DNA of 64,000 nucleotides from an uncultured Gammaproteobacteria bacterium (GCA_964527115.1 CAZGPK010000003.1:13189-77188); one strand, 5' to 3'. Shown: positions 15,275-36,277, numbered from the stretch's first letter. Program-made: numbers and translations. The notes: generated by a model from the sequence alone, not told the origin.

Positions 15275-15300
15275 AAAGAATTAAAAAAACTTAAACGAGC

Positions 15301-17442: not shown

Positions 17443-17448
17443 GTGGGT

Positions 17449-17976
17449 TTATTTTTTAGAAAGGCGGGAAATAATAAAGCGATAAAGGATAAGGCCAATA
17501 TAGCCAAAAAGAAGGCCCAGGGCAAGACCAGCCAAGATATCAACGGGATAGTGAAGGCCGGTGATGACACGAAAGAAGAGAAAGGGGAAAAGAAGGAAGA
17601 AAAGGAGGAAACGGAGTGGGCGAGAGGGACGGAAAAGAGCCAAGAGAAAGATAAAAAGAAGAGTTAGCTTTAGGGCATGACCAGAGGGGAAAGAGCCACC
17701 TGAATAGTGAGAAGAGAGAAGCGCAGGTGGAGTAGGCAGGGCCTGGTCAAGAAAGGGGCGGCGCCAGGGAGAAAGGGTGGCTTTTAAAAAGTTTTCAAAA
17801 AGCTCAGCTAGAGCTAAAGAAAAGAGAAAAAAGAAAGCTGAGAGGCGACTCTTTTGAAAAAAAAGAAGGAGGAAACCAAGGATTAGAAAAATCCAGGGAA
17901 GATAGTTAAAAAAGATCCAAATAAAAGGGGAAGGGGTGGGATAAACAGTTGGTTGCCAAAAAAGTATTTTATCCAT
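17449..17976 (-). CDS. PAP2-family (polyprenyl-)phosphate phosphatase
   Basis: PAP2 motifs K..SPWRRP, PSGH (SFPSGHAL) and R.....H...D (FRVITGLHYPVD). Confidence 0.65.
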   Translation of the reverse strand: MDKILFWQPTVYPTPSPFIWIFFNYLPWIFLILGFLLLFFQKSRLSAFFFLFSLALAELFENFLKATLSPWRRPFLDQALPTPPALLSSHYSGGSFPSGHALKLTLLFIFLLALFRPSRPLRFLLFFLLFPFLFFRVITGLHYPVDILAGLALGLLFGYIGLILYRFIISRLSKK

Positions 17977-18964
17977 TTGAGGAAAGAGATTGATTTTTAC
18001 ATTTTAGGAAAAAAAAGATGGCAAGGAGACCAATGCTGGTGCCAAACCAAAGGGTAGTGGCGCGAGAAAGGAGAGCAATGGTAATGGCTTGATCCCGAGA
18101 GAGGGTGAAGAGGAGAATAAGAAGACCGATGGTGGTGGGCTCGGCAACACCAATACCACCGGGCATGGGAACGGTAAAGCCGATGGCAGCTGAAAAAGTG
18201 AAAATGAAAGTAATGGTAAAGAGACCAGCAAGGCCGGCAAATTGAGGGTTAACCTGGGTAAGGATGAAATAGCCCCCGGAAATCTGGGCAAACCAGGCAA
18301 GGATAGCAAGAAGGGAACCAGCAAGGAGAGTGCTGGGATGGGTGAGACTGGAGGCGGAGCGAAAGAAATTGTCAGCCTTGGTAATGTATTTTTTGACCAG
18401 TGGCAAGCGGGAGAGAACTTTGAAAAACCAAGGCCAGAGTTGTTTCTTTTGAAAGAGGGTGACAAAGGCAAGGCAAACCAGGAAAGCGGAGCCAAAAACC
18501 CACCAACCTAAGCGAAAGGACATCACTCCCCAGAACATAAGGAAAAGCATGGCAAAGGCATCGGTCAGGCGCTCGATAAAGAAAAGGGGGGCGGTAGTGG
18601 AGAAGGAGATGCCGTGGCGGTCTTTTAAGAAGTAGGACTTGATAAGCTCCCCTCCCCGCATGGGGGTGATAGCCATACCAAGACCGGTAAGAAAGATAAG
18701 AAAAGAAGAAGAAAGGGAAACATTGCTGGCGACTTTTAAACGGGTCAAAAAAAACTGCCAGCGAAGGAAACGGAGACCGTAGTTTAAGAGACTTAAGGAA
18801 AGGGCGGTAAAGATGACAAGAGGACGGACATTTTTTATCTCGGCAAAAATTTGCTTTTGGTCCCCCCAGTGAAGAAGAAATAAAACCAGGATCAAGAAAA
18901 GAGCCAGGGGGGGGATAAGGCGAGAAAGAGAGGTGAAAGAATATTTTTTCTTTTGATTGGACAT
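17969..18964 (-). CDS. Flippase-like / LPG-synthase-TM (UPF0104) family membrane protein
   Basis: 331 aa, 8 TM. LNYGLRFLRWQFFL and MRGGELIKSYFL segments are typical of this family. 8-nt overlap with the PAP2 gene. Confidence 0.6.
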   Translation of the reverse strand: MSNQKKKYSFTSLSRLIPPLALFLILVLFLLHWGDQKQIFAEIKNVRPLVIFTALSLSLLNYGLRFLRWQFFLTRLKVASNVSLSSSFLIFLTGLGMAITPMRGGELIKSYFLKDRHGISFSTTAPLFFIERLTDAFAMLFLMFWGVMSFRLGWWVFGSAFLVCLAFVTLFQKKQLWPWFFKVLSRLPLVKKYITKADNFFRSASSLTHPSTLLAGSLLAILAWFAQISGGYFILTQVNPQFAGLAGLFTITFIFTFSAAIGFTVPMPGGIGVAEPTTIGLLILLFTLSRDQAITIALLSRATTLWFGTSIGLLAIFFFLKCKNQSLSSNG

Positions 18965-18985
18965 GATCTTTATGTATGATAGCCT

Positions 18986-20158
18986 ATGCTTATGGAAAAA
19001 GGGAAGATAAAAGAGAAGAAGGAGAAGCCCAGGGTTTTAGTTTCTTTGACGTATTTTTCCCCGAACGTTTCCGGAGTAACGATATATGCGGATATTCTGG
19101 CCCGGGAATTGGTAAAAAGAGGGTACGAGGTAGGGGTGATTTGCAGTCAAAACAAAAAAGATCTACCCAAACAAGAGACAATTGAAGGGGTAAAAATTTT
19201 TAGGGTAAGGGTCAATTTTGCCTTGGGAAAAGGGGTGTTGATGCTTGGCTTCCCAAAAGAGGCCTGGAAACAGGTAAAAATGGCAGATGTAGTTAATTGT
19301 CAGCTACCCCAGATAGAAAGCTTTGTCTTGGCCTTTTGGGCAAAGATCTTAAAAAAGAAACTAGTAATCACCCATCATTGTGAATTTGGGATAGACGGGC
19401 CATGGACAAATATAGTTACTGGAATTTTAAGCTATCCTTTTCACTTAATTTCTTATCTTTTGGCAGACAGAATTGTCTCCTATACAGAAGACTATGCAAA
19501 GCATTCCATTTTTTTAAGGCATTTTAAGAAAAAGACAGTTTTTGTTTTACCGCCGGTGCTGGTGGAGAAAACAGCCAAAGAGAAAGAGGTAGAGATTGGA
19601 GAAAAGATAGGCAGAGATAAGGATAGCAAGATAATTGGTTACGTAGGACGGGTCGCCTGGGAGAAAGGATTAAATTTTTTACTGGAGGCTTTGGAAAAAG
19701 TAAACCAAAAAATACCGGCAAAATTAGTGCTGGTTGGTCCGTATGAAGAAGTGCTGGGAGATAACTCTTACCAGAAACTTAAACCTCTTTTAGAAAAACA
19801 GAAAGATAAAGTAAAGCTTTTAGGTCCCCTGCCCCACAAAGAAATTGGGGCTTTTTTGAAAAATTGTGATTTGTTGGTTTTACCAAGCACTAATAACTTA
19901 GAAACGTTTGGAATTGTACAAGCTGAGGCAATGATTATGGGAGTACCAGTGGTAGCCAGCAATTTACCGGGAGTACGAGTGCCGCTGCAATTAACGGGAA
20001 TGGGAGAAATAGCTAAAGTTGGTGACAGTAATGATCTGGCAGAGAAAATTGTCAAGGTTTTAAAAACTTCTTACTCTCCACTATTTTCAAAAAAAGCTCG
20101 ATCTATCTTTTGCCTGGAGAGGTTTGTAGAAAATTACGAAGAAATACTAAGATCTTAG
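18986..20158 (+). CDS. GT4-family glycosyltransferase
   Basis: GT-B fold hallmarks: SGVTIYADILARELVKRGYEV at the N-terminus and the EX7E region ETFGIVQAEAMIMGVPVVAS. Confidence 0.8.
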   Translation: MLMEKGKIKEKKEKPRVLVSLTYFSPNVSGVTIYADILARELVKRGYEVGVICSQNKKDLPKQETIEGVKIFRVRVNFALGKGVLMLGFPKEAWKQVKMADVVNCQLPQIESFVLAFWAKILKKKLVITHHCEFGIDGPWTNIVTGILSYPFHLISYLLADRIVSYTEDYAKHSIFLRHFKKKTVFVLPPVLVEKTAKEKEVEIGEKIGRDKDSKIIGYVGRVAWEKGLNFLLEALEKVNQKIPAKLVLVGPYEEVLGDNSYQKLKPLLEKQKDKVKLLGPLPHKEIGAFLKNCDLLVLPSTNNLETFGIVQAEAMIMGVPVVASNLPGVRVPLQLTGMGEIAKVGDSNDLAEKIVKVLKTSYSPLFSKKARSIFCLERFVENYEEILRS

Positions 20159-20162
20159 CTTC

Positions 20163-20188
20163 CTAGTTCGAGTCCAGTGCGGGGAGCC
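20163..20188 (+). repeat. Island repeat copy 0 (tRNA T-arm-like, short variant)
   Basis: ctagttcgagtccagtgcggggagcc starts 5 nt after the GT4 stop codon. It aligns to copies 1 and 2 with a 5-nt gap. Confidence 0.6.
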
Positions 20189-20412
20189 CATAAAACATCC
20201 CGACTTTCTGGTTTACCGAAGACCCAAACTTTGACGAAATCATTAAAACGGACTCATAATACCATTTCTGTCCAAATCGCAATATTTATTCAAATTTTAG
20301 GTTGGGAAAATATATAAGGATGTTCACAGAAGAATACTTAGAGAAACCTAAAGTAAAATTAAGATTCAATGTGATAGTATGTAATGTGTTTAGCTGAAAA
20401 TACCCATAATAT

Positions 20413-20640
20413 ATGGTAAAATGCCTAATGCCAGCGAATTGTCCGGAATGCAAATTTGGTGAGTCGAATTATTGCTTGATAAAAAGAGTTTTTATTGATC
20501 GAAGAGGAGAAACAGTTAAAGAAGAATCTTTTGGAAGTCAGTCTCTCATAGTTTGTCGGCCTCCAGGAACTCGCTCTGGATTTCCATATCGTAATCGGAT
20601 TGCACCCCTTGGGTACTGTGAAAGTGGCGAAAAAAAGTAG
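20413..20640 (+). CDS. Small Cys-rich protein (possible Zn-binding; 75 aa)
   Basis: C4, C10-x2-C13 (CPEC) and C21, plus C48 and C69. Lies 12 nt upstream of the AlaRS-like gene on the same strand. No clear SD, so coding status is uncertain. Confidence 0.35.
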   Translation: MVKCLMPANCPECKFGESNYCLIKRVFIDRRGETVKEESFGSQSLIVCRPPGTRSGFPYRNRIAPLGYCESGEKK

Positions 20641-20652
20641 GAACTTAAGACT

Positions 20653-21837
20653 ATGCCAAGAAACGAGTTAGATCCCTTAACCAAATTTGTTGAAAATAAC
20701 AGCCTATGTCTTAATGGTGAATTTATTTATCCCAGAACAGTATCAAATCCAGACTTCTCCTTCAGGGAACCAATCACTCACGATGGGAGACATTTTAGGT
20801 TTCTCGAATCTCCTATAGATCAAAAAGGGGCAGAGTTACTATCAACACCCGACTTCTTTAATCAATTTTTTACTAAAAACGGTTTTGATGTAATATCACC
20901 AATTCCATTGGTTAATAAAAACGGTACAACCTTATTTATTTGTGCTGGAGTTCAAATTCTTGACTCTGTAATTCATCAAGAAGCTCCAATTCCCCAAAAA
21001 CCGTCATTTGTGGCTCAACCTGTTCTAAGAACTCAGTTTATAGACTATATCGGAGAAGGGACATCGACTAGCTTTATTAACGTATCAACCTGTCAACTAA
21101 ACCTCAGCCGTCAAGAACATTTTCAGCATTTACAAACTTGGGTAGATCTATTTTTACAACTAGGACTTAAGGAGACAGATTTATATTTCAAAATCAAACC
21201 CTATGAACAGCGATGGGGGGACAAAGTTGTAAAAAGCGAAAAAATCTTTATCATTTATGACGGATTAGAAATAGGAGATTCTTCCTATGTTGAGAATCTT
21301 CCTCAAAAAGGCAGACGCAATTTATCCTTAAGTGATATTGGTTTCGGGTTAGAAAGAATTAAATGGATTATGCAGGGAGGGTCATATTTTGACGTATTAG
21401 GCAATGGCAGAGTATCGGATAATATTGACAGAGTATCAGCTGTTTGCACCCACACCCTATCTCTATTAGCTGGTGAAGGTCTAAAACCATCCAACAAGGA
21501 ACAGGGTTATCGATTTAGGTTATTCTCCAAAAAATTAGTTTCAGATATTTTAGGCAACCACTTAGAAACCAATGAACAAGTTAGAAGCTATTATGATTAT
21601 TGGAAAATATGGACCAATTTATCACTTTCGGTAGATCAAGCATTACATGCAGTTACTCAAGAAAATACCAGAAATTTCAATCGAAATTTATTGGACAAAC
21701 TCTGTGAAAAATATCCAGATGTTGGGTTAGATATAAATCTGCCGACTACCGTTATTTTAAAACGATTAAAAGGTACTAGTGTAAAACCAGATTATTTATC
21801 ACAGGTGCTTTATGAATTAAAATACCAGAATGGATAG
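20653..21837 (+). CDS. Stand-alone class IIc aminoacyl-tRNA-synthetase catalytic core, AlaRS-like paralogue (no tRNA-recognition, editing or C-Ala domains)
   Basis: Colinear with the AlaRS N-domain. TTLFICAGVQ matches TLLFTNAGMNQF and QPVLRTQ matches QRCVRAGG. SDIGFGLERIKWIMQGG matches VDTGMGLERIAAVLQ and KPSNKEQGYRFR matches MPSNEGRGYVLRR. Only 394 aa. Confidence 0.75.
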   Translation: MPRNELDPLTKFVENNSLCLNGEFIYPRTVSNPDFSFREPITHDGRHFRFLESPIDQKGAELLSTPDFFNQFFTKNGFDVISPIPLVNKNGTTLFICAGVQILDSVIHQEAPIPQKPSFVAQPVLRTQFIDYIGEGTSTSFINVSTCQLNLSRQEHFQHLQTWVDLFLQLGLKETDLYFKIKPYEQRWGDKVVKSEKIFIIYDGLEIGDSSYVENLPQKGRRNLSLSDIGFGLERIKWIMQGGSYFDVLGNGRVSDNIDRVSAVCTHTLSLLAGEGLKPSNKEQGYRFRLFSKKLVSDILGNHLETNEQVRSYYDYWKIWTNLSLSVDQALHAVTQENTRNFNRNLLDKLCEKYPDVGLDINLPTTVILKRLKGTSVKPDYLSQVLYELKYQNG

Positions 21838-22534
21838 TGATATAAATACATCAATTGGTCAAATATTTCTTGGCGGTGGTGGTGGAGCGGAAGATAGTGT
21901 TTTGCTCGATAAAAGATTTCTTAATGCTCTAAAAAACAAAAAAATTGTATATATTCCAATTGCTTTAACACCAAAGTTAGGTGGTTATGAAAGTTGTTTT
22001 GATTGGATAACCTCCACTTTAACTAACGCATCGGATGATTTTATTGAAATTTCCATGTGGATAGATCTTAATAAAAAAAGCATAACTGATTTGGAAAACT
22101 ATGGCGGAATTTATATCGGAGGTGGTAATACTTACAAACTATTAAATCATGTATATAAGTCTGGATTTAGTGAAGTCCTAATTGAATTTTATAACCGGGG
22201 TGGGCTAATTTATGGTGGAAGTGCCGGAGCAGTTATTCTAGGCAAATCAATTTCAATAGTTTCCGAAGAAAATGACGCGAACTATAAATATGAGAATGGT
22301 CTCAATTTGTTGAATGATAAATCCGTACTATGTCATTTTGATAAAGACATTAAGATTACAGTTGAGCACTTCATAGAGAATAAAAGAGGGGATGTAATCG
22401 CGCTTACTGAGAAGTCAGGACTAATAATATCAAATAATAATTCGGTTGAATCGGTTGGTTTTGAACCAGTAACTATTTATACCCTTTCGGGTAAAGACGA
22501 ACAGTTAAACCCTGGAGAAAAGTCAAAAATTTAG
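21830..22534 (+). CDS. S51-family serine peptidase (peptidase E / cyanophycinase-like)
   Basis: GIYIGGGNTYKLLNHV...GGLIYGGSAGAVILGKSI matches PepE IVIVGGGNTFQLL...ALYIGWSAGANL. VLCHFD matches INPHF. 8-nt overlap with the upstream gene. Confidence 0.8.
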   Translation: MDSDINTSIGQIFLGGGGGAEDSVLLDKRFLNALKNKKIVYIPIALTPKLGGYESCFDWITSTLTNASDDFIEISMWIDLNKKSITDLENYGGIYIGGGNTYKLLNHVYKSGFSEVLIEFYNRGGLIYGGSAGAVILGKSISIVSEENDANYKYENGLNLLNDKSVLCHFDKDIKITVEHFIENKRGDVIALTEKSGLIISNNNSVESVGFEPVTIYTLSGKDEQLNPGEKSKI

Positions 22535-22556
22535 ATGTGGTGTTATAATATTACCC

Positions 22557-23513
22557 ATGGTATCGCTAAAAGAAATCGGCCTTGTTGACACAATTGATTG
22601 TCATACTCATTCTGGTGGTGTAGACCTTTACAATCTATATACTGGTGATTTACCTATGGCTCAGTCTGTTGACGATTTAGTTCTTAAAGCCAGATCTTCA
22701 GGCATTTCTAAAGTAGTAACCTTTCCTTTTCCAACTACCGGCTATTACAATGTTCACGAGCTGGTCACACGTAACGTAAGAATTCCCTCGGGGCAACAAG
22801 ATTTCCCCTATCAAGTTGAAAATATGGCTTTAATAAAAGGTTGTGAGAACTCCGACCTTCCACTCTTACCTTTTATGGCCATCGATCCATCAAATCATAT
22901 TCAGGAACAAGTAGATAGCCTCCGCCAAAATTATAAAAAAAGAAAATTCTATGGTTTAAAATTACATACTCTGGCAACAGGTTCTACTGCTGATAAACTA
23001 ATTGGTTCAGAAATTGTAGAATTTGCTCAGGAAAAAAATATACCAATAATAATTCACTCAGGTTTGGGTGACGAGCATTCACACCCTCAAAACATAGTTA
23101 AATTAGCCAAACAGTCTCCAAACCTGCGTGTTTGTGTGGCTCACCTTGCTTGGTTAGACGAAGATACAATTAAAAATGTGGCTAAAACGAACAACGTGTT
23201 TATTGACACTTGTCCGTTTCTCCAAATATGTAACCGTGTCAGAAAAGGAAGTAAAATGGTATTTTCACCAAATTTAATAGATCCCAACAAACCAGCCGAA
23301 TCTTTGTTTAATTATTATAAATTATTAAAAAATAATTTAATTTGGGGTACAGATGAACCTTGGACAAAATGCATAAGTGCGAGAGGAAATGTCTCCAGTA
23401 ATCATACTTATGGTGACGAAGCCCAGGTTATTTCGGATCTATTTCAAATCTCCCCTCAAGCTGCGCTGGACATTACTTCTCGGAACACTGAAAGATTTAT
23501 CTTTGGTTCATAA
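22557..23513 (+). CDS. Metal-dependent TIM-barrel amidohydrolase (amidohydrolase_2-like)
   Basis: N-terminal HxH (IDCHTHSGG), internal IIIHSG and CVAHLAW His residues, and the C-terminal WGTDEPW Asp motif. Confidence 0.7.
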   Translation: MVSLKEIGLVDTIDCHTHSGGVDLYNLYTGDLPMAQSVDDLVLKARSSGISKVVTFPFPTTGYYNVHELVTRNVRIPSGQQDFPYQVENMALIKGCENSDLPLLPFMAIDPSNHIQEQVDSLRQNYKKRKFYGLKLHTLATGSTADKLIGSEIVEFAQEKNIPIIIHSGLGDEHSHPQNIVKLAKQSPNLRVCVAHLAWLDEDTIKNVAKTNNVFIDTCPFLQICNRVRKGSKMVFSPNLIDPNKPAESLFNYYKLLKNNLIWGTDEPWTKCISARGNVSSNHTYGDEAQVISDLFQISPQAALDITSRNTERFIFGS

Positions 23514-24769
23514 ATCTTAATCTGTCCACTAACTATTTTATTAGTTATTTCACTGTGTTTTATAAGATTTTCTTCAACTATATTACTTATACTCATCCTT
23601 AATTCCTCGTCAATATCTTTCTGATATCCATCTAGTGCGATAGCGGCTTGCCAGGGATCATTCATATCTCTGCCCATTTGTGAAGTTAAGTAAACAGTGC
23701 TTTCAATACCTAACGTTTTAAATATTTCTTCGGCAATAATGTCGCCAATTACAGTAAATATTTTTCCAGTATGATAAACAGGATTTTTTCCGCAAGGTGC
23801 CTCTGAGCTCATGTTCCTTGTAAAAGGGATTATTCCATTCGACCTGTTCCCTCTACCTACCGCTCCTTCGTCTCCGCTCTCAACTGCGCTCCCAATGGCG
23901 GTTAGATATATATCTTGATTATCAAAATTATCACGGGTATTTAATATAATATCTATCGAATATGTCGGAAATTCCCTCTTTAGCATATTGATAAGCAATT
24001 CTTTTAGTTCGTTTAGTTTTTGAATATAGAAACCCTGGTCAGGTGTAAATTCTGCAATAAATGGGATACATAAGGTTAACTCAATATTCTTACTAACTCT
24101 TTTTCCCATTACTTTAATATCAGTCCCAACATATTGATGAGATTTTTTAAATTTAGCGTTGTCTAGTAATCCCTCGGAAATAATCACCATGTTCTCCAAA
24201 TCCGATAAAGGAAAATAGCTTACCGTAGTGGAAGTATCATTCGACCTAAATCCATTGCTATGATGTTTTATATACTTTTCATCAGACACTGAAAAGAATT
24301 GACTTCTTTCATTCTTAGTCGTGCCATCCTTATTGTAAACCACTCCCGGTCCTTGGGAAAAATGTGTATTATCGATAATTTTTAACCATTTATCTGTATC
24401 TAATAACGGAAAGATATTTTTAAAGTGATCTTTTACAACATTATTGACGATTTTCATATAGTCAATTTCTTCATCTAAAAAAATATGAGTAAATCTTCCA
24501 TTTAGCAATATTCTTATTGGAGAAGTCATTTCTCCCTGACCAAAACTTACCTTTGAAGAACCTCCAAGGACGGCAACCTTATCCACCATATGACGTAAAA
24601 TTACCCCATACTTATCAAGACAATAAGTTGAGTATGCCACCGAAATTTTCTCCGCTACCGCATCACATAAATTGTCTGGGTGGCCAATCCCTTTCCTTTC
24701 GACAACTTCATACTCTGTATCATTGATATTTGGCTTACCTGTCTTGAAAACGACAAAATTATTTAACAT
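23456..24769 (-). CDS. Archaeal-type S-adenosylmethionine synthetase (MAT)-like protein
   Basis: VVERKGIGHPDNLCD, SNDTSTTVSYFPLS, GTDIKVMG and YLTAIGSAVESGDEGAVGRGNRSNG...GKNPVYHTGKIF are colinear with M. jannaschii-type MAT motifs. The 3' end overlaps the amidohydrolase gene by 58 nt. Confidence 0.85.
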   Translation of the reverse strand: MLNNFVVFKTGKPNINDTEYEVVERKGIGHPDNLCDAVAEKISVAYSTYCLDKYGVILRHMVDKVAVLGGSSKVSFGQGEMTSPIRILLNGRFTHIFLDEEIDYMKIVNNVVKDHFKNIFPLLDTDKWLKIIDNTHFSQGPGVVYNKDGTTKNERSQFFSVSDEKYIKHHSNGFRSNDTSTTVSYFPLSDLENMVIISEGLLDNAKFKKSHQYVGTDIKVMGKRVSKNIELTLCIPFIAEFTPDQGFYIQKLNELKELLINMLKREFPTYSIDIILNTRDNFDNQDIYLTAIGSAVESGDEGAVGRGNRSNGIIPFTRNMSSEAPCGKNPVYHTGKIFTVIGDIIAEEIFKTLGIESTVYLTSQMGRDMNDPWQAAIALDGYQKDIDEELRMSISNIVEENLIKHSEITNKIVSGQIKIYEPKINLSVFREVMSSAA

Positions 24770-24870
24770 ATGTTTCTGATTATATCTCTACTATCAGCGT
24801 CAGTAAACAAAAACCCATATTATTTTTATAATCTAGGAACCCCCTTCTCATTTTTTGATAAAATTAACTG

Positions 24871-25395
24871 ATGAAAACATATATTCTCCCCGGATACTCT
24901 GACAAAAATAAGTTTTGGGTTGATGAAACCGTCGCTTTTTTAAAACCAGCAATTCCGGCAATTGGTCTTTACTGGAATCATTGGGATGGCAGTTCCACAG
25001 AAGATGGCTGGATTGAAGAAGAAGCTCGAAGAATTATAAATGACTCAAATAATGAGAAAATAAATATTGTCGCTAAATCTGTCGGGGCAATGGTTTGTAT
25101 GGCTGTACTAAAATTAAAGCCAGAATTAGTAAATAAAGTAATTTTGTGTGGAATCCCATTTAAAGACTTTCTTCCAGGTGATGAAAAGAGATATGAGTCT
25201 TTAAAATCTGTTATGCCAAATAATATTCTGCGTATCCAAAATGAGGAAGATAATTATGGATCATTTGAGAAGACGGAATCCTTTGTTCGTTCAATTAATC
25301 CCAACATTAAAGTAGTCTCAAAACCACGAAACGATCACTACTATCCCTACTCGGAAGATTTCAAGAATTTCTTAATCGAGAACAATAATCAATAA
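24871..25395 (+). CDS. Small alpha/beta serine hydrolase (YdeN/RBBP9-like)
   Basis: 174 aa. Nucleophile elbow IVAKSVGAMV, acidic NEEDNYGS and C-terminal NDHYYP His. Divergent from the MAT-like gene across a 101-bp spacer. Confidence 0.6.
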   Translation: MKTYILPGYSDKNKFWVDETVAFLKPAIPAIGLYWNHWDGSSTEDGWIEEEARRIINDSNNEKINIVAKSVGAMVCMAVLKLKPELVNKVILCGIPFKDFLPGDEKRYESLKSVMPNNILRIQNEEDNYGSFEKTESFVRSINPNIKVVSKPRNDHYYPYSEDFKNFLIENNNQ

Positions 25396-25679
25396 AGCTA
25401 ACTTATACAATCGAAGTTTGTAATCTCTTAATTTCTCTTAATCTATTCTCCATCACCTCCATATCCATCGCGTTGTTAAACGCCTTATTAATCCTATCTA
25501 ACGCTACTATAATATCTTTAGAGCTGGGGAGCTCTACAGTGTAGGCGGGATGGGGTAAATTAGATTTGAATCAGATTTAGAAGATACTGCCCTACTCTCT
25601 TTGATAAGTTTATGTTGTTTTTCTTAGGGGAATAATTGATTAAAGATTGTGAGAGCGTGATGTTTGATAGAATTGGTGG

Positions 25680-26333
25680 ATGACTACAGAAGAGCCTCTT
25701 GAGATTCAGAGTGGTGCAATCGAAGAGAGGTTTGCAGCAAACAGGGAATTGCCACATATACGGGTAGATGATTTAAAACCGTTTTGGGTAAGGGGAATTA
25801 TTGATCCAGAAGATCCCTGGAGCATCCAAACAGTTGAAGAAGTACCAGTTAGGCTGATAGCGGCAAGTTCTGTTTTGAGAGATTGGGGCGATATTCAAAG
25901 ACAGAGTGGAGAAAAATTAAAAAGAATAGTTGATGGTCTTCGTTCTGGAGAGCTTGTGCCCGACAGGGAGCCAGTTATTCTTTTTGAATATGGGGGAATT
26001 TACGGCATATATGATGGGCAAAAGCGAATGATGGCGGCAAAGGCGCTGGGGATGGAAACTTGGCCAGCAAGAATACAGAGAACTATGCCAACCACTTTGG
26101 AATTTTCAAGAGATACGGCTGCCTATCACGAGATAATGGGAGGAAGAATGGAAGGTGGGCTGTGGGAAGGGAAGCTTGAAGAGGTTGCGCTTGACGAGCA
26201 AGGAGGCTTAGTTTCTTCTAGATGGTCAATAGAAAGATATGATGGTTTATGGGTTTTTGCAAAGAAAATGGATCTGGCTCGAAGTGTGTATGAAAAACTT
26301 GGAGCAAATGGACAGGCTCCAAGCCTAATATGA
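25680..26333 (+). CDS. ParB/Srx-fold (ParB-like nuclease domain) protein
   Basis: IYDGQKRMMAAKALGMETWPARI matches the ParB N-domain core (DG..R..Aa..lG...ip). 217 aa with no recognisable HTH. Confidence 0.55.
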   Translation: MTTEEPLEIQSGAIEERFAANRELPHIRVDDLKPFWVRGIIDPEDPWSIQTVEEVPVRLIAASSVLRDWGDIQRQSGEKLKRIVDGLRSGELVPDREPVILFEYGGIYGIYDGQKRMMAAKALGMETWPARIQRTMPTTLEFSRDTAAYHEIMGGRMEGGLWEGKLEEVALDEQGGLVSSRWSIERYDGLWVFAKKMDLARSVYEKLGANGQAPSLI

Positions 26334-26364
26334 TCGACAGGGTGGCGTAAAGTTAGCCTCAAAA

Positions 26365-26395
26365 CTAGTTCGAACATAGTCCAATTGAGGGAGCC
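26365..26395 (+). repeat. Island repeat copy 1
   Basis: ctagttcgaacatagtccaattgagggagcc. A 23-nt stretch (aaaactagttcgaacatagtcca) is identical to copy 2. Contains the 8-bp palindrome GTTCGAAC. Confidence 0.85.
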
Positions 26396-26470
26396 AATGA
26401 TATATCTTACCTAAGGATAGGGTTATTATCGTTTGATGCGGTTTGGGACTATAATGAGGTAAAATTAGCT

Positions 26471-26776
26471 ATGGAGAGTGATACGTGGTTAGTTAGTCCA
26501 AAAGAGCTTCGTGTCTCTGGATCTGTTCCCGCCGATGAAAGTGTCGTCAAAGAATACGAAAGATTACCAGCAGACACGATTCCTCCCGTCCAGGTTGTCA
26601 GACATCCCGAAGATGGTTTTCTTTATGTGGTTGATGGACACCATACATTGGAATCAGCTCTTAAGAGAAAAGATGAGCAGATACCAGTACAACGCTTTAC
26701 TGAAAACAGAGAGTTAAACGACCAAGAAGCAGAAAAGAGACGATTAAGATGGATAAAAAGCCAAAAGGGTGATTAA
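26471..26776 (+). CDS. Small ParB/Srx-fold (ParB-like nuclease domain) protein
   Basis: PPVQVVRHPEDGFLYVVDGHHTLESALKRKDEQIPVQRF carries the DGHH(R/T) ParB-like core. 101 aa. Confidence 0.6.
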   Translation: MESDTWLVSPKELRVSGSVPADESVVKEYERLPADTIPPVQVVRHPEDGFLYVVDGHHTLESALKRKDEQIPVQRFTENRELNDQEAEKRRLRWIKSQKGD

Positions 26777-26788
26777 GTGATCTTAAAA

Positions 26789-26820
26789 CTAGTTCGAACA
26801 TAGTCCAGCCGGGGGAGGCC
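26789..26820 (+). repeat. Island repeat copy 2
   Basis: ctagttcgaacatagtccagccgggggaggcc lies 13 nt after the stop codon of ParB-like gene 2. Confidence 0.85.
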
Positions 26821-26914
26821 AGCCAAGTTGGCATTTGATTAAGATTAAACACGTGTACTTGTTATACTTTGAATATGGATGAGTATATAGTAAAGCAATA
26901 AAGATAGAAGAAAA

Positions 26915-28039
26915 ATGAAAAGAATATTTTCCATTATTTTATTCTCGTTGATTGCCTTTTTCGCTTTTAATACTTCTGTTTTAGCCCAGACAGAAATGGT
27001 TGATGAACCACTCAAAGAAGAAACCCTTGAGGCAGTTGTGGAAAAGATATTGGAGGAGAAGCAAATAAAGCCAATGGGTTCAGAGGAGCTCCAACTCTAC
27101 CAGAAATTAGAACTTTTGGTAACAAAGGGTTCTTTAAAAGATAAAAAGATTACTGTTGAGAACGGAGATGTTGCTGTTGCTAATAATTTGAAATACAAAG
27201 TAAATGATAAAGTGATAGTCATTTTTAGTAAAAATTTTGAGGGTGATGATTACTTTTACATTACTGATTACATCAGACGCGATTCTTTGGTTTGGCTGTT
27301 TATTATTTTTGTTGTATCAGCTGTAGTTATTGCCAAATGGCGGGGAATATTGTCACTGGTAGGAATGGGTATTTCTTTTCTGGTTATTTTTTCTTTTATC
27401 CTGCCAAAAATATTAGCAGGTTCAAACCCAGTTGAAATTGCCATTTTGGGTTCGCTGATAATAATTCCAGTTTCATTTTTTCTTTCCCATGGGTTTAACA
27501 AAAAAACAATAGTGGCCATAGCGGGAACACTTATCGCCTTGATAATTACAGGGGTACTGGCAAATGTCTTTGTTGAAGCGGCTAAACTAACAGGCTTTGC
27601 CTCAGAAGAAGCAGGGTTTTTACAGGTCGCCAGACAAGGAACAGTCAACATAAAGGGATTGCTTTTGGCAGGGATTATTATTGGTGTTTTGGGAGTATTA
27701 GACGATATTACAATTTCCCAATCAGCAATAGTATTTCAACTTAAGAAGGCAAACGAAAAATTGAAATTTAACGAACTTTATAAAAGAGCCATGAATATTG
27801 GGCGAGATCATATCTCTTCAATGATCAATACACTTGTCTTAGTTTATACAGGTGCCGCCCTACCGCTTCTTCTTCTTTTCATCGATAACCCTCACCCTTT
27901 TTCAGAAATTGCTAACTATGAAATTATTGCTGATGAGATAGTTAGAACTCTGGTTGGTAGTATTGGACTTATTTTGGCAGTTCCGATTACGACAGTAATT
28001 GCCTCATTAGTAGCGGAACAAAGCAAAACTGGTCACTGA
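26915..28039 (+). CDS. YibE/F-family membrane protein
   Basis: Signal/anchor, a ~100-aa extracytoplasmic domain, then multiple TMs. The GFASEEAGFLQ and DDITISQSA segments are typical of YibE/F. Confidence 0.65.
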   Translation: MKRIFSIILFSLIAFFAFNTSVLAQTEMVDEPLKEETLEAVVEKILEEKQIKPMGSEELQLYQKLELLVTKGSLKDKKITVENGDVAVANNLKYKVNDKVIVIFSKNFEGDDYFYITDYIRRDSLVWLFIIFVVSAVVIAKWRGILSLVGMGISFLVIFSFILPKILAGSNPVEIAILGSLIIIPVSFFLSHGFNKKTIVAIAGTLIALIITGVLANVFVEAAKLTGFASEEAGFLQVARQGTVNIKGLLLAGIIIGVLGVLDDITISQSAIVFQLKKANEKLKFNELYKRAMNIGRDHISSMINTLVLVYTGAALPLLLLFIDNPHPFSEIANYEIIADEIVRTLVGSIGLILAVPITTVIASLVAEQSKTGH

Positions 28040-28322
28040 CAATTCCGGGTGAGCAAAAGTAAGGGAAGGTTTTACTTTTTCTATCTCTTCCCTTGTCTGC
28101 TGAATGAATTTAAAATCTTTAAATGTCTTGAAGATACAAGCTAATTGAGTGGTTATATTAAGGTTATGATTCTCGAGCTCGTGAAACTTTATGATTTTTA
28201 TAAACTTGGGAAATTGATTTTATTTTGTTTCCAGTCTTGGTGCTAATCTATTTCTTTAAGTAGTTTGTAAAGGAAAGTTATACTGTATAGGATACAAGTA
28301 TATTATTTGATTAAATATAACA

Positions 28323-29729
28323 ATGAATTCTGAATACGACCCTGGCAATGAAGAATATCAGCATAAAGAAAAGACTGCTGAAAGATATCAAGTAGTAATT
28401 GTTGGTGGTGGTTTAAGTGGTATTGCTCTAGCAAGACATCTCGAGAGAGCAGGGGTAGACTACTGTATTCTTGACAGCGAGCCTCTTGCAAAATCCCAAA
28501 GTGTTCATTACTTAACAACAAAACAAGCAGCTCAGTCACTTGGTTTACAAAGTGAATACGAGAATCAAGTTCATACGAGAATCCCCATCACTGGTTATAC
28601 CAGATTTGATGCAAGAGAAGATGGTTTGCAGGTTCTCGAAGCCCTGAGCCCTGATAGTAGTCGAAGTGGTGGTTTTGTAACAGTTTCTAAGCAACAAATT
28701 AAAGATAGAGCTGCTTCTGATGGAATATCATTACTTGGAAGTAACCCGGTAATAGCAGCTACACAACGTCCCGATACCGTGGATTGGGAATTAACACTTC
28801 GAAATGGAAAAACTACTTCGGCAGAAATTATAATTGATGCAACCGGAGTAAGAACAAGGGTCGCTAGACTTGCGGGGTTGGTAGACAGAGAAATGTTAGA
28901 TAATCGTAAGGTTAGATATTGTTATGGGGCAGTTCTAGAATATTTAGGACCGGAGGATAGATTATTTTTTGCAGATAGATTTCCAGAACAAGCAGATCTT
29001 GGTATTAGAGAAGGCGCTGGCTGGATTATGCCATTGGGAAACAAAACTGCAGAGGTAGTTGTTGGATGGGAAGATCGCCTAGGGGAAGTTGGCAAATGGC
29101 AAATTGGCCACCCACGTACACTATTGCGACGTTATTGCGATTGGTTTGCTGAAAGAGGAATTATGGTGAATTTCAATCAAAGACTAGAAGTGGTTTCGGG
29201 AATTTTTAGTCAACAGCCACTTGATTACAGAGCTCTTGAACATAACTCAAATTTAATACTTTTTGGAGAGTCTTTAGGGTTGAATCAGCCTCTCAACGGA
29301 TATCTAATAGGTGACATAGATGGATATGCGAGGATCTTATGCGAAGAAATTGTAAATAGATTAAACGGACGAACATGGAGACCTTATGAGGCAATTTACG
29401 CTGATCATACGTTGTTTGGTCCCCAAGTAGTCCTTAGTGAGAGAAAAACGCGGAGTGTTCTTTCTGGTGTTGGCAGATCTGCTGCCACTGCAGATCTTCA
29501 AAAATTATTGGTTGCGTGTCTGTCTCCGGATGGATTATGGAGGGCAATTGATAGCGGGGTACCAATAAAGCAAATACTTATTGGAGTAGTTTCCAATCCG
29601 AAATACTTACCTGTGATCGCAAGAATGGGGGTAGAATATTTATCTTTAATGCTGAGAGATGATCTATATCAGCGTGAAGTATGGTTAAAAATAAAAAAAA
29701 GATTAGCAAACAAAAATAAAGATAAATAA
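28323..29729 (+). CDS. FAD-dependent oxidoreductase (geranylgeranyl-reductase / lycopene-cyclase-like Rossmann protein)
   Basis: Dinucleotide fold YQVVIVGGGLSGIALARHLERAGVDYCILD. Second motif AEIIIDATGVRTRVARLAG. Confidence 0.6.
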   Translation: MNSEYDPGNEEYQHKEKTAERYQVVIVGGGLSGIALARHLERAGVDYCILDSEPLAKSQSVHYLTTKQAAQSLGLQSEYENQVHTRIPITGYTRFDAREDGLQVLEALSPDSSRSGGFVTVSKQQIKDRAASDGISLLGSNPVIAATQRPDTVDWELTLRNGKTTSAEIIIDATGVRTRVARLAGLVDREMLDNRKVRYCYGAVLEYLGPEDRLFFADRFPEQADLGIREGAGWIMPLGNKTAEVVVGWEDRLGEVGKWQIGHPRTLLRRYCDWFAERGIMVNFNQRLEVVSGIFSQQPLDYRALEHNSNLILFGESLGLNQPLNGYLIGDIDGYARILCEEIVNRLNGRTWRPYEAIYADHTLFGPQVVLSERKTRSVLSGVGRSAATADLQKLLVACLSPDGLWRAIDSGVPIKQILIGVVSNPKYLPVIARMGVEYLSLMLRDDLYQREVWLKIKKRLANKNKDK

Positions 29730-29746
29730 GCTAATTTTTTAAAGCA

Positions 29747-29777
29747 GGGGTTCAAGTCTCGTCCGACACGGGGAGTC
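29747..29777 (+). repeat. Island repeat copy 3 (divergent)
   Basis: ggggttcaagtctcgtccgacacggggagtc lies 18 nt after the stop of the FAD protein gene. About 18/32 ungapped matches to copy 2, sharing the GTTC.A...GTCC...CGGGGAG skeleton. Confidence 0.4.
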
Positions 29778-29834
29778 AGTAATATTCTTATTCCAGAGAA
29801 GTGACTAATAATCACCGGTAATTTGAGAGTTAAT

Positions 29835-31421
29835 TTAATTTCTTGGGCTAGCCTGGTACCCCTGTAAAAGAATCTCATTGTGATTGTCTTTTATTAAAAA
29901 AACTTCCTGAAGAGAATGGTCAGATATTTGGTCAGGAGAGATAGATAGATTATCCCCCACTATTACCTGATCTGGGGATATATCATATTTCCAGTCGATA
30001 GGTTTCACTTTGACATTGGCAAAGTTGACGTTGGGATTAAAGGCTCTATCGGTGTAGTATTGGTCACTGTTTTGAGGATTTTCCTCTTGGAAACTGGCTG
30101 GTGGGTATTTTAAATAATAAAGGAGAAGAATGTATGGAACAGTCCGACTATTGTCGATGATAAATTCTTTTTGGGGATTTTCACTTATATAGCTGGACAA
30201 TTGTTTGTATCCATAATTCCAGGCCTTTGCCCTTTGTACTGGAAAAAGGAGGTAGTATGAGCGAAAGAGGAGAAGTAAAGAAAATAGTGAAAGCCCAATC
30301 AGTGCTGGGTATTTTATTGGCTTTTTTATTTTGTATAAAATCCGATCCATCCCAATGGTAATAATTAACGTGTAGGGCAAAAGTAATGGCAGGGCTCTCT
30401 GGGTAGAATAATTGGTATTGGCTAAGGCAGCGGGAACTGGGGCAAGTAGGATGAGACCAAATAGGTAACGATATATTTTATTTTTTCGGTTTGTATAAAG
30501 AGTATATAGACCAGTAATCCAGGGAATAAACATCCACGAATAAAATACAGCTAGCTTGGGAATTGATCTTTGCAAATCATAGTCCTGATTATTGAATAAA
30601 TTATTCGGGGAAAAATAGGACAGATATTGGCTAATAAATGAGGTGCTAAGACTATCACTTTTTACCCAAAACGCAGGCTTGGTCAACATCCATAGATTGG
30701 GAAGCTGAATGAGCAAGGCAATGACTATTGGCCAGGTCAAAGTTTTTTGGGGACGGCGTTTGGTGTGAAAAAGAACGAGGATTAGAGCGATCAGAAGTGG
30801 AGCCAGATAGCGTTGGGTATGAGCGGCATGGGTGGAAAGAGAGAGGAGGGGCAAGGATAGGTATGGCTTTCTGTATAGCAGAATTCCAAAAGATATTAGG
30901 GCAAAGGCAAAAGTAGTTTCGTATCCCAAGCGGGCATTAAAAACTGTCCAGGGACTAATTAAAAATATAAATACTCCGATAAGTTTTGAGCTTTTTGACT
31001 TTAGCAGATTCTCTTTGGTGAAAAAATAATATATTGCCAGGGCAACTGCTAACATTGAGACTGAGGATAAGAGTCTCAATGAAAAGTCGTTTAGACCAAG
31101 AAGGCGAATGATGATAGCTTGCAGATAGACATATAGACCGGGGGTATAGGAGCCGAAAAATTTAAAGTTTAATGGTAATAGTTGGCCATAATGGTCCCTT
31201 AATGTTTGGGAAATTGAGTAGGCATCATAAGCGGCAACTGCCTCATCAACATAAACTGCTGGAGGAATAGAGTCGAGGCGGTAAAGATAAAGAAAGAGAG
31301 CAAACGTTAGAACCAATAATAGGCAGATTTTACTTTTTAATAAGCGAAGCAAGACCATAGATGGAAGATAAAAATATAAAAGGGTAAAGGCTATAATTGT
31401 TGGAAATATTTTCTGGTCCAA
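29835..31421 (-). CDS. GT-C-type (GT39/GT83-like) polytopic glycosyltransferase
   Basis: The first extracytoplasmic loop has YVDEAVAAYDAYSI (the DE motif of PMT/ArnT-like enzymes). About 12 TM. The start is probably M22 (31358), and the N-terminus overlaps the upstream ORF. Confidence 0.6.
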   Translation of the reverse strand: MDQKIFPTIIAFTLLYFYLPSMVLLRLLKSKICLLLVLTFALFLYLYRLDSIPPAVYVDEAVAAYDAYSISQTLRDHYGQLLPLNFKFFGSYTPGLYVYLQAIIIRLLGLNDFSLRLLSSVSMLAVALAIYYFFTKENLLKSKSSKLIGVFIFLISPWTVFNARLGYETTFAFALISFGILLYRKPYLSLPLLSLSTHAAHTQRYLAPLLIALILVLFHTKRRPQKTLTWPIVIALLIQLPNLWMLTKPAFWVKSDSLSTSFISQYLSYFSPNNLFNNQDYDLQRSIPKLAVFYSWMFIPWITGLYTLYTNRKNKIYRYLFGLILLAPVPAALANTNYSTQRALPLLLPYTLIITIGMDRILYKIKKPIKYPALIGLSLFSLLLLFRSYYLLFPVQRAKAWNYGYKQLSSYISENPQKEFIIDNSRTVPYILLLYYLKYPPASFQEENPQNSDQYYTDRAFNPNVNFANVKVKPIDWKYDISPDQVIVGDNLSISPDQISDHSLQEVFLIKDNHNEILLQGYQASPRN

Positions 31422-31812
31422 AAAGGAGTGAAAACACTATTGGAATCAATAAAGTAATGGCAAGAAAAGCATGGTGTTTATCTTCAATAATTTTAAATAA
31501 ACCTAAAATAACAAGCGGGGTGATAAAAAAGGGAAGAGACTTCAAATCAATGACATTGAAAAACTTGCTCTGCAGTTTAAAAAAAATGCGGCTTTCAGGC
31601 CGTTCTTCGATGATATGGGCCAAGCGGTAATATCTGGGGGGGTAATCAATCATTCTTTGTCTCATTTCAACAAGTTCAATTTCTGATTGATATGTCAATG
31701 AATGATAGTTTGATCGGAAAATTTGGCGGACACTTAGAAATATTACTAAAAACAATAAAAAAGAGAGAAAAGATTTCTTTTTAAACATTGTGTATTGGTA
31801 GAATATTAGCAT
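31330..31812 (-). CDS. Hypothetical 4-TM membrane protein
   Basis: A 160-aa ORF with hydrophobic segments. Co-oriented with, and overlapping, the GT-C gene start. No recognisable motif. Confidence 0.35.
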   Translation of the reverse strand: MLIFYQYTMFKKKSFLSFLLFLVIFLSVRQIFRSNYHSLTYQSEIELVEMRQRMIDYPPRYYRLAHIIEERPESRIFFKLQSKFFNVIDLKSLPFFITPLVILGLFKIIEDKHHAFLAITLLIPIVFSLLFGPENISNNYSLYPFIFLSSIYGLASLIKK

Positions 31813-31816
31813 ATGA

Positions 31817-31847
31817 CTAGCTCGAACATATTTCAGTCGAGAGAGCT
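31817..31847 (+). repeat. Island repeat copy 4
   Basis: ctagctcgaacatatttcagtcgagagagct has 24/31 matches to copy 1. It sits directly upstream of the minus-strand gene start at 31812. Confidence 0.65.
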
Positions 31848-32064
31848 GGGGAAACTTAGTATTTATCTAGCCTGGGCTTTTACTTTTTCTTTGGGATTTT
31901 GGCTTGGCTGATAGAAGATACTACCCTACCCTTTTTTGTTTGACTTATGCTGTTTCTCTTGGAGAAGCAAAGTGAAGGGGTACCGGTCAAGAAAGATAAA
32001 TTGATTGGCCGTCTACAGCACTTAATTTTTAATATATACTGATAAATTGAAGGAGGTGATGAAT

Positions 32065-32469
32065 ATGAAAAAAATTATAACGTTGCTTTTTGTTCTGGCT
32101 GGTATTTTAGGTTTCACTTTTGTAAAAGGCACAATTGCACAAGCTGACATGTTGGTGTCTCCTGGTGTATGGGTGAAAGGTACAAGCGCAGTTGAGGAAA
32201 TTACCATCCATCTCGCTTATCCCCTTTCTGAAGCGACAGAAGGTGTTGACCTAAATATTTTAGACAAAAACTATGAACTATTTGAACCAATAGAGGAAGG
32301 GAGCTTTACAATGAGTGCAGACTCCAGGGGAGATCTGGTTATTAAGTTTGTCCCAGAGATTGGCAAATATACTATTGGTGATTCTTATATTGTAAGAGTG
32401 ACTATAGGTGAAAAGTCATGGGATTTTACGGTGACAATTAAGGAAGCAGGGGTTGTTGATTCTGAGTAG
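32065..32469 (+). CDS. Small secreted beta-rich protein
   Basis: AGGAGG at 32051-32056, 8 nt before the ATG at 32065. Signal peptide MKKIITLLFVLAGILGFTFVKGTIAQA. A strong terminator follows. Confidence 0.55.
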   Translation: MKKIITLLFVLAGILGFTFVKGTIAQADMLVSPGVWVKGTSAVEEITIHLAYPLSEATEGVDLNILDKNYELFEPIEEGSFTMSADSRGDLVIKFVPEIGKYTIGDSYIVRVTIGEKSWDFTVTIKEAGVVDSE

Positions 32470-32482
32470 TAGTCAGGGAACA

Positions 32483-32525
32483 AAAAATGCAGGGATGGGC
32501 CAGAAGGCTCCCTGCATTTTTTTTG
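32483..32525. terminator. Bidirectional intrinsic terminator
   Basis: The stem aaaaatgcaggga / tccctgcattttt has a 13-nt loop and is flanked by A- and T-runs. It lies between convergent genes. Confidence 0.8.
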
Positions 32526-32540
32526 TGGACTGTTTGTTTT

Positions 32541-33581
32541 TTAGCGGTAGATATTAAAACTTGAGACTATTTCGTTTATGTTTGCTGACATGTCTTGGTA
32601 TCGATCCCCTTCGCTCCCACTTAGGGGGTTATCAAGAGACTGGGTAAAGTAAAAAACTTTATCAGCGTCTCTTTCCAATTCTTTTCCATAAAAGATGGTA
32701 TTTTCTTCACTTTTTAAGGTTTCCCATTCTGACAAGCTTACTTTGTGGATAGTAAAAAGTTGATAGCTTATGCCGGCAGTTTGAAAATTAAAAATTGCCG
32801 TTTTCGGGGATAGCTCAACTTTGTAAAAATTAGACCATGAACTGGGGATTTTTAGACTAAAACCGAGCTGGCTGTTGAGGTAGTTATTTTCGTTTGGATT
32901 TGGGCGGTTGGTAAATTTAAAAGTTGAGAGTATCTGGTTTTTTATTTGCTCAAAACCTTGGTTCCCCGGGTCTGAAATTGAAAAGGTGATGTGAATAAAA
33001 GCTGAGTCTGATCCTTTTTCTAAGATAATGTGCTGGAAGGTCCCCAAACCTTCTTCTGTAAAAGTTAAGCCCTGGTAATTGTTGAGGGAAATACTTTTGG
33101 GATCTTCTGTGATCTCCACCATCCCCTGGTCTTCTATTCCCTTAATCAAGGAATTGGTGAAATTAGTTAAAGTGGTTGAGATTTCTCTGGGTTCAAAGCT
33201 TAGGGAAATTCCATCGTATAGCTCGGTACCCTCTTTCTGGGTTGGTCCCCACTTTTGCAAGATAGCGGTACTGGCTTCAGCTAAATGGAAAGTAAAGTCG
33301 GTTGGGTACTTAATTTCATAAGTTGAAGAGCTATGCGTTTTCCAGTCGGCGCTGGGGTCAACAGTGGGAAGCAAAGAAGGAGAGCTTGATGGAGGAGAGA
33401 GAGTGGGAATGGGAACTGAAGTTTCCTTTGTCTGAGTCTTTTTAAGGTTTAAATTCTGGTAAAGCAGAAAAGAAGTTACTCCCAGAAGAAGAAGAGGTAG
33501 AACTGCCAGGGTAATGGGCAAGAGTGGTTTTGATTTCTTTTTGAGGATAACTGGAGCTGTCTTAGCAGAAGAGATTGTCAC
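32541..33581 (-). CDS. Membrane-anchored extracytoplasmic protein, unknown function
   Basis: N-terminal TM (LLPITLAVLPLLLLGVTSFLLY), then an S/P-rich linker, then a soluble domain. Confidence 0.45.
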   Translation of the reverse strand: MTISSAKTAPVILKKKSKPLLPITLAVLPLLLLGVTSFLLYQNLNLKKTQTKETSVPIPTLSPPSSSPSLLPTVDPSADWKTHSSSTYEIKYPTDFTFHLAEASTAILQKWGPTQKEGTELYDGISLSFEPREISTTLTNFTNSLIKGIEDQGMVEITEDPKSISLNNYQGLTFTEEGLGTFQHIILEKGSDSAFIHITFSISDPGNQGFEQIKNQILSTFKFTNRPNPNENNYLNSQLGFSLKIPSSWSNFYKVELSPKTAIFNFQTAGISYQLFTIHKVSLSEWETLKSEENTIFYGKELERDADKVFYFTQSLDNPLSGSEGDRYQDMSANINEIVSSFNIYR

Positions 33582-33677
33582 AGGAAATTTATCGGATTGA
33601 TTTTTAATTTAATAGTTTTTAAGTTTAGCACAAAGGTTTGAGGCGTGATTTATCAGAACAAAACTTAGTTTTGGTTT

Positions 33678-36222: not shown

Positions 36223-36277
36223 AATTTAGTCTTGCGGGAAAGGATGGGGAAAAAATGGATTGGGATTGGTCAAGCTA

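Follow-up and report, generated by a model that had tools for sequence, protein, structure and literature searches.

The question raised by this locus is why a motif of about 30 nt resembling the T-arm of a transfer RNA (tRNA) should occur in five copies, all in one orientation, within a 64,000-nt stretch of DNA assigned to an uncultured Gammaproteobacteria bacterium (GCA_964527115.1, CAZGPK010000003.1:13189-77188; hereafter the window). A first-pass annotation of the sequence had proposed that the copies partition a genomic island into modules, and had offered three readings of them: scars of serial integration at a target derived from a tRNA or transfer-messenger RNA (tmRNA), a binding site for ParB-like proteins, or an RNA element of 3' untranslated regions (3'-UTRs). 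The first of these readings is supported by our analysis and can be made specific, while the other two are not supported. The motif is very probably one arm (half-site) of the attachment (att) sites of a family of large serine recombinases (LSRs) for which the tRNA-Asn 3' end serves as the model target, and the island that contains the copies would have formed by accretion of elements at one such site.

All five copies described earlier are present on the plus strand at the positions given for them, and we refer to them as c0 (20164-20189), c1 (26366-26396), c2 (26790-26820), c3 (29748-29778) and c4 (31818-31848). The first, TAGTTCGAGTCCAGTGCGGGGAGCCC, has no insert; c1 reads TAGTTCGA-ACATA-GTCCA-ATTG-AGGGAGCCA, and c3 is a decayed version, GGGTTCAA-GTCTC-GTCCG-ACAC-GGGGAGTCA. 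As had been noted, an exact 23-nt block (AAAACTAGTTCGAACATAGTCCA) is common to c1 and c2, and the strongly diverged c4 groups with both as a repeat family. It also holds that c0 to c3 follow plus-strand stop codons, at distances of 5, 32, 13 and 18 nt in the table of open reading frames (ORFs); c4 directly adjoins the beginning of an ORF on the minus strand. We compared the copies with a family-wide consensus of 22 fixed positions, TAGTTCGA-[N5]-GTCCA-N4-GGGGAGCCA, taking chance expectations from 200 Markov shuffles of the window. In the no-insert register c0 has one mismatch, and c1 and c2 have one and two, where no match with four or fewer mismatches is expected. The five mismatches of c3 in the insert register are marginal (0.025 such matches expected per window), and c4, with seven mismatches to the general consensus (2.3 expected), owes its membership solely to its likeness to c1 and c2. 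In leave-one-out nhmmer searches a model of c1 and c2 recovered c4 (E=3e-4); c0 was the top match outside the training set, at only E~0.3, and c3 was missed (E=80). No further consensus copies occur elsewhere in the 64 kb. The motif observation holds, with c3 and c4 as decayed members.

The arms share a layout of two boxes. The distal one is (T)AGTTCGA, and the proximal one consists of GTCCA-N4-GGGG followed by GAGCCA at about the crossover. In c0 and in genuine tRNA-Asn genes the two boxes abut (TTCGA-GTCC), whereas in c1 to c4 and in about 55 metagenome loci they are separated by a 5-nt spacer of variable sequence (TTCGA-N5-GTCC) and lie 5 bp further apart. Published work on serine integrases gives the distal zinc-ribbon-domain motif a position in attB that is 5 bp closer to the crossover than its position in attP (PMC3783163). 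By this rule the no-spacer form would be an attB-type arm and the spacer form an attP-type arm, so that c0 is of the attB type and c1 to c4 are of the attP type. The absence of ACATA from c0, noted in the first-pass annotation, corresponds to this register shift of 5 bp between attP and attB. The crossover itself can be placed at about GGG/GAGCCA (the slash marking the point of exchange), because the sequence of the protein P0154 diverges directly after ..NWL, and because homologues of an LSR found in a close relative of the window (locus L115, see below), mostly from Patescibacteria, have a common ..(T/S)N(W/L)L and then diverge; this placement is limited to within or beside GGG/GAGCCA. Counted from there, the boxes occupy positions of about 8-12 and 18-25 in attP-type arms, or 13-20 in attB-type arms, which is close to the published positions of 9-11 and 16-24, or 11-19, for the Listeria A118-type integrase (Rutherford et al. 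2013, PMC3783163). In A118-type sites each half-site likewise combines a region for the recombinase domain with a distal motif for the zinc-ribbon domain. Phage sites differ in that they are usually single, lie within protein genes and are roughly dyad-symmetric, whereas the partner half-sites here show no evident symmetry.

Further evidence for this identity comes from the opposite strand. Across about 49 distinct metagenome loci, the variation of the spacer form falls at third codon positions of the antisense sequence TGG CTC CCC NNN NTG GAC NNN NNT CGA ACT, which encodes the peptide W-L-P-x-(V/L)-D-x-x-R-T. The frame continues for 13-60 further codons to a stop, or about 20-23 in the best-conserved subfamily, where the complete tail counted from W comprises about 33 amino acids (aa). 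It is often closed immediately 5' of the W codon, and the DNA past ..GGAGCCA is unrelated from locus to locus. A profile of the tail peptides retrieved 175 short ORFs, and the peptide is C-terminal in every one of the 120 listed; the tail is 33 aa long in 85 of these 120 and ends in ..AA in 69 (soil-type subfamily, P0001-P0120). In most of these ORFs the N-terminal part is unrelated, in some cases a truncated xth, dnaJ or ClC channel gene, and they are thus best seen as junction fragments. A subset extends upstream into ..RRLLNFVLSNCTW.DGEL..FRQPFDLLAE.. (..RRLLNFVLSNCTWxDGEL..). When P0047, which consists of a recombinase C-terminus and the tail, was used as a query, 2,119 cluster representatives were matched, and its longer relatives carry the Pfam domains Recombinase, Zn_ribbon_recom or Resolvase. 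The C-terminus of another protein, P0231, is ..WLPGLDSN, the antisense of the no-spacer form. Together, the tail and the P0047 and P0231 matches indicate that the motif is the point where the reading frame of an LSR crosses its own att site, and on these sequence comparisons we regard the identity of the arms as LSR half-sites as established. The tail peptides are not recognised by Pfam or NCBIfam, and plasmids searched by tblastn for the recombinase tail yielded no match. The ending of the soil-type tails (e.g. ..VRAMQLAA) resembles an ssrA-like degradation tag, which integration would be predicted to remove; the tails of c1 and c2 and those of other Patescibacteria loci have no ..AA ending.

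In the arrangement that these data suggest, the recombinase gene would normally lie just right of the joint and be read leftward across it. The antisense of the arm would then supply the end of the enzyme, which would run ..N-W/L-L up to the joint and continue past it either as P-x-x-D-S-N.. (attB-type) or as P-x-x-D-x-x-R-T plus tail (attP-type). Read in this way, c0 gives GLPALDSN followed by a stop codon. Antisense to c1 there is a relic tail (26325-26396, minus strand; WLPQLDYVRTSFEANFTPPCRSY, then a stop codon) with neither a start codon nor a recombinase body upstream, and c2 has a comparable one (26773-26820, minus strand; GLPRLDYVRTSFKIT, then a stop codon). The antisense of c3, stop-LPVSDET-stop-T, contains two stop codons, and that of c4, QLSRLKYVRAS, has lost all of the invariant W, P, D and T. 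Judging from these frames, c1 to c4 are progressively decayed relic tails.

Direct comparison with relatives of the window bears on the role of c0. The names on homologues of the GT4 glycosyltransferase encoded upstream of c0 point to a host among the Patescibacteria, near Shapirobacteria. In the metagenome locus L115 (ENA ERZ27293400, k141_350643) the GT4 protein is 96% identical to that of the window, and the locus is collinear with window positions 9058-20187 at 95.4%. The homology ends at 20187/20188, the edge of c0, immediately after ..GGGGAGC, and there is none beyond. The next gene in L115 encodes, on the opposite strand, a 518-aa LSR (P0390) with Resolvase and Recombinase domains, whose frame passes through the arm as ..TNLLPALDSNHEAK.. 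/ ..RIRTNLLPALDSNHEAKILEF..(stop) / ..RIRTNLLPALDSNHEAK.. into the antisense of the GT4 gene. This alignment allows us to regard c0 as a site really used by such a recombinase in a close relative. At L115 11112-11167 the recombinase frame enters the antisense 3' end of the glycosyltransferase gene, with 56 nt to its stop codon; in the window counterpart of this arm a TAG (from CTAG) would close the frame right after ..DSN. The window flank to the right of c0, CCATAAAACATCC.., contains no coding sequence for a recombinase end, and c0 therefore looks like an unoccupied or re-emptied attB.

A more distant relative, L116, delimits what lies between. There the GT4 gene is followed directly by the PMT/UbiA genes that the window has at 36.28-40.6 kb, and synteny jumps from ~20146 to ~36284. 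Since L116 has nothing of the intervening 16-kb low-GC block between GT4 and PMT, that block is an insertion. This composite block (20188-36277) has a GC content of 0.35-0.42, against 0.44-0.46 outside it, and holds all the joints discussed here; we count its foreign origin as established.

The distribution of the motif elsewhere connects it with tRNA-Asn. Only four exact matches to a 19-mer turned up in 185,579 species genomes; one (L007, with the copy 30 nt past a gene) is a true homologue and the rest are probably due to chance. When the spacer was allowed to vary, a metagenome scan yielded 104 loci, 42 without a spacer and about 55 with a 5-nt spacer of almost any sequence. Their GC content and neighbour genes vary widely, and hardly any lies inside a tRNA gene; a scan of viral contigs for the motif found nothing. 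In the window and 70-plus related loci, ARAGORN and Rfam found no RNA family or tRNA at the motif except for true tRNA-Asn genes in L061, L078 and L117. A complete tRNA ending in the motif, which the first-pass annotation had suggested looking for, does exist: in both L061 and L078 the motif is preceded, on its own strand, by a true tRNA-Asn, whose 3' end, GGTTCGAGTCC....CGGGGAGCCA, is the no-spacer form. It is followed by six attP-type arms in L078 and by three in L061, in a single orientation within each locus, and neither locus contains an LSR gene. These arrays have the same layout as c0 followed by c1 to c4. In L117 an LSR homologous to that of L115 overlaps tRNA-Asn(GTT) by 42 nt in antisense, and among 120 homologues of this L115 enzyme, most of them from Patescibacteria, 31 end in ..[WL]LP.[LQV]DSN.., the antisense of a tRNA T-arm and acceptor end; others have attP-type tails (..WDDFRT..) or a longer conserved tail. 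The similarity of c0 to the tRNA-Asn 3' end, from T-loop to acceptor, is confined to its last ~23 nt. ARAGORN and Rfam find no tRNA or tmRNA 3' end at c0 that could be the target within the window, whereas L117, L078 and L061 each have one, that of tRNA-Asn. That any of the five copies is itself a tRNA gene or pseudogene was rejected, as neither ARAGORN nor Rfam RF00005 made a call at any copy.

Arms of the attB type are also found outside tRNA genes, in L011, L012, L037, L038, L106, L102, L035 and L020. Two left and four right flanks are present there in various combinations, all of which break at the arm edge (e.g. L037/L038/L011 and L106/L102), some with a recombinase reading into the arm, as in L011 and L038, and some without. 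Occupied and empty states of several attB-type sites thus appear to have been sampled in the metagenomes. On the recombinase side of the joint, a box CTTAYTCTAAC is present with 0-2 mismatches in L115, L117 and L119, and the attP can be reconstructed as the arm followed by GAGCAAGTTAGTCCTTATTCTAAC... A conserved recombinase-side arm was also sought to the right of c1 to c4, and the only match was a weak P'-like box, CTTATTCCAGA, in the right flank of c3 (p~0.045).

Two further joints show that the copies, although they do mark module boundaries as had been claimed, are an incomplete list of them, since modules 1 and 3 are each split once more. One of these joints, x (25498-25645, plus strand), consists of a very degenerate arm (~25498-25530) with a flank of ~125 nt, and in pairwise alignment it is paralogous to c4 and its right flank (31818-31965). 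The other is marked by the remnant of a C-terminal tail from a different type of LSR (28073-28177, minus strand; LENHNLNITTQLACIFKTFKDFKFIQQTREEIEKV, LENHNLNIT..REEIEKV), which places a joint at ~28178-28183, between the YibE/F and FAD-protein genes. This remnant matches residues 493-527 of P0397, an LSR of the long tail type, with 71% identity over 35 aa (tblastn, E=7e-11), and it forms a module boundary without a tRNA-like motif. It is also the only trace found when recombinase pseudogene remnants were sought to the right of each arm. The island has at least seven joints, and its modules contain 1-7 genes each, on both strands.

With this in mind, one may propose a history for the island. 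Elements would have inserted serially at the c0 site, and c1 to c4, x and the 28.1-kb tail remnant would represent their distal ends. Accretion would have been in tandem, with the newest element beside c0 and the older ones pushed rightward, and later loss of the recombinase genes would have left a 16-kb mosaic of cargo modules between same-orientation scars. Because there is no LSR gene in the window, serial integration has probably left the internal copies as inert scars, most of them decayed, that no longer serve as substrates.

Several observations count against this account. The arrangement is the same in all 12 contigs that contain the locus, and there is no direct sign of current mobility. 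Neither a complete nor a partial LSR gene is present in the window, tail remnants aside. The right border of the block (~36.2 kb) was searched for an arm and none was found, and c0 itself lies outside any tRNA gene, 5 nt after the glycosyltransferase gene. The right half-sites have no clear dyad symmetry to the arms, only the right flank of c3 being weakly similar, and c4 and x are too diverged to be assigned independently of c1 and c2. AttL and attP are not a substrate pair for canonical serine integrases. Tandem accretion would require relaxed site choice, that is, an enzyme that accepts an occupied site, as has been proposed for Ccr and DsiB.

The alternative that survives best takes the internal arms to be live, the recombinase-less modules being cassettes or cis-mobilisable elements that would be excised and inserted in trans by a recombinase from another part of the genome or from the community, in what would amount to an integron-like platform built on serine recombinases. 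In its favour, c1 and c2 keep nearly all consensus positions (one and two mismatches), modules are small and gene-sized in the window as well as in L078 and L061, attB-type arms in other metagenomes have combinatorial left and right flanks, and recombinase-less cis-mobilisable islands have been proposed in Dehalococcoides (PMC3146451). However, decay is evident in c3, c4 and x, which contain stop codons or lack invariant positions, no recombinase-side arm is recognisable to the right of c1, c2 or c4, and neither the identical arrangement in 12 of 12 contigs nor the lack of a recombinase in 64 kb fits a working platform, so that we consider this alternative unlikely. In a broader and likewise doubtful form of the idea, the arms would still be used by a family of serine recombinases from several phyla as a cassette platform at tRNA-Asn-type sites, small modules without a recombinase being shuffled in trans, and the swap of C-terminal tails (often ..LAA versus tRNA-antisense) would act as a switch of stability or directionality. 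Integron attC sites and cassettes in the strict sense were rejected on the lack of a significant hairpin, the serine type of the recombinase and modules of 1-7 genes on both strands.

It is very unlikely that the copies are direct repeats left by a classical tRNA-targeting tyrosine integrase, which would have duplicated a tRNA 3' segment. The similarity of c0 to the tRNA-Asn 3' end is what this explanation would predict, and the no-insert loci L023, L029 and L111 look like 3' halves of tRNA-Asn from the anticodon loop onwards. Yet the enzyme found at the c0 site in L115 is a serine recombinase, the island has no integrase gene, and the repeats of tyrosine integrases are exact copies of the tRNA segment, in contrast to c1 to c4 with their 5-bp shift and variable spacer.

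That the motif acts in RNA from the plus strand, whether as a terminator of the upstream genes or as a tRNA-like signal for processing or stability in their 3'-UTRs, is extremely improbable. The position of four copies 5-32 nt past plus-strand stop codons and their likeness to a T-arm had suggested it, but a position after a stop codon is expected if each arm ends an inserted module. No tRNA or Rfam match was found at any copy, and the predicted folds are no better than those of shuffled sequences (z-scores -0.7 to +0.8) and differ from copy to copy, with no common structure among the five. Over more than 100 loci the variation shows codon periodicity on the opposite strand and is not compensatory. 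On the same periodicity, the idea of a larger RNA with a 5' acceptor strand upstream of the insert-type motif was dropped. Equally improbable is a parS-like site for the neighbouring ParB-like proteins: c1 and c2 do contain the palindrome GTTCGAAC and flank ParB-like genes, but it is missing from c0, c3 and c4 and is formed where the box ..GTTCGA meets the copy-specific spacer, the same box stands beside unrelated genes in more than 100 metagenome loci of many phyla with other spacers, the two ParB-like proteins (101 and 217 aa) are mutually unrelated, and ParB-domain genes are typical cargo or integration-module genes of such islands.

For the preferred reading, that of LSR half-sites accreted at a tRNA-Asn-like target, the closest published analogue is the group of ssrA islands of Dehalococcoides, which match the architecture of the window almost point for point. 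These islands are low in GC and lie in tandem downstream of a tRNA-like 3' end, each with a ~20-bp same-orientation repeat at its bounds (McMurdie et al. 2011, PMC3146451), and beside the repeat there is an extra conserved motif that cannot be aligned with the target gene (PMC3146451). A CcrB-like serine recombinase of ~540 aa is encoded at attL on the reverse strand, its frame overlapping attL with no stop inside the island (PMC3146451). The integration module includes a ParB-domain gene, and many islands have no recombinase and were read as accreted or cis-mobilisable (PMC3146451). The target differs, being the tmRNA gene in Dehalococcoides, tRNA-Asn in the relatives of the window, and in the window itself a 26-mer that resembles tRNA-Asn and stands free behind a glycosyltransferase gene. 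The island described here also differs in its Patescibacteria host, its much smaller modules and in that no second small, DsiA-like recombinase was seen. As this architecture has been known since 2011 from Dehalococcoides, the window adds a member to a known kind of island rather than founding a new kind.

In staphylococci, elements of the staphylococcal cassette chromosome (SCC/SCCmec), which are moved by Ccr serine recombinases, pile up in tandem at one chromosomal site, and some of the units have no ccr. Direct repeats of the integration-site sequence partition these tandem units as the arms do here. The differences are that SCC elements insert into the 3' end of rlmH/orfX, which encodes a protein, that CcrA and CcrB are usually both needed, and that ccr is not at the joint. 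The replacement of a C-terminal tail has a parallel in the integration-dependent immunity of mycobacteriophages, where attP lies within a gene and integration replaces the tail of its product (PMC3694055 and related papers). There the split gene encodes a repressor and the integrase is a tyrosine recombinase, whereas here the LSR's own tail would be exchanged, and any role as a degron is hypothetical.

What was an unexplained repeat becomes, on this account, a map in which each copy is the end of one foreign piece of DNA, and this in Patescibacteria, whose mobile-element biology is poorly charted. Many environmental lineages contain serine recombinases that target tRNA-Asn and have a reading frame running across their own att site, and the arrays show a 5-bp register rule for attB and attP that originally came from one phage enzyme. 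Such a register is a simple sequence signature for att sites, and with it metagenomes may directly supply attB/attP pairs as candidates for recombinases in genome engineering.

Some other features of these loci can be mentioned. Module 1 (20413-25395) encodes a 394-aa protein with a weak match to the alanyl-tRNA-synthetase core, an S51 peptidase, an amidohydrolase, an archaeal-type SAM synthetase and a small hydrolase, and may be a cargo cluster for the biosynthesis of small molecules or of aminoacyl-derived compounds. The repeat of ~150 nt at 25498-25645 and 31818-31965, a degenerate arm with its 125-nt flank (TAGAAGATACTRCCCTAC..TTATGYTGTTT..), is followed by unrelated genes at its two places, and the flank could be a recombinase-side arm or a promoter. 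ParB-1 is unrelated both to ParB-2 and to the 140-aa ORF after the repeated flank. The only tRNAs detected in the window by ARAGORN and Rfam are a tRNA-Ile(TAT) and two tRNA-Met at 62.5-62.9 kb, and the GC skew of the window, close to zero at 20-26 kb and around 50 kb, is otherwise strongly positive (0.2-0.45). In L117, the element integrated at tRNA-Asn (positions 1-9750, in a Patescibacteria-like genome) carries defence genes beside its recombinase, namely those of a type I restriction-modification system and of Shedu (SduA). The far end of this element was not found and lies at a distance of over 10 kb. Finally, L050 has a tRNA-Asn-like gene (1611-1687) with an 8-nt anticodon loop (ARAGORN tRNA-???, gtta), whose T-stem contains the TAG variant of the motif.

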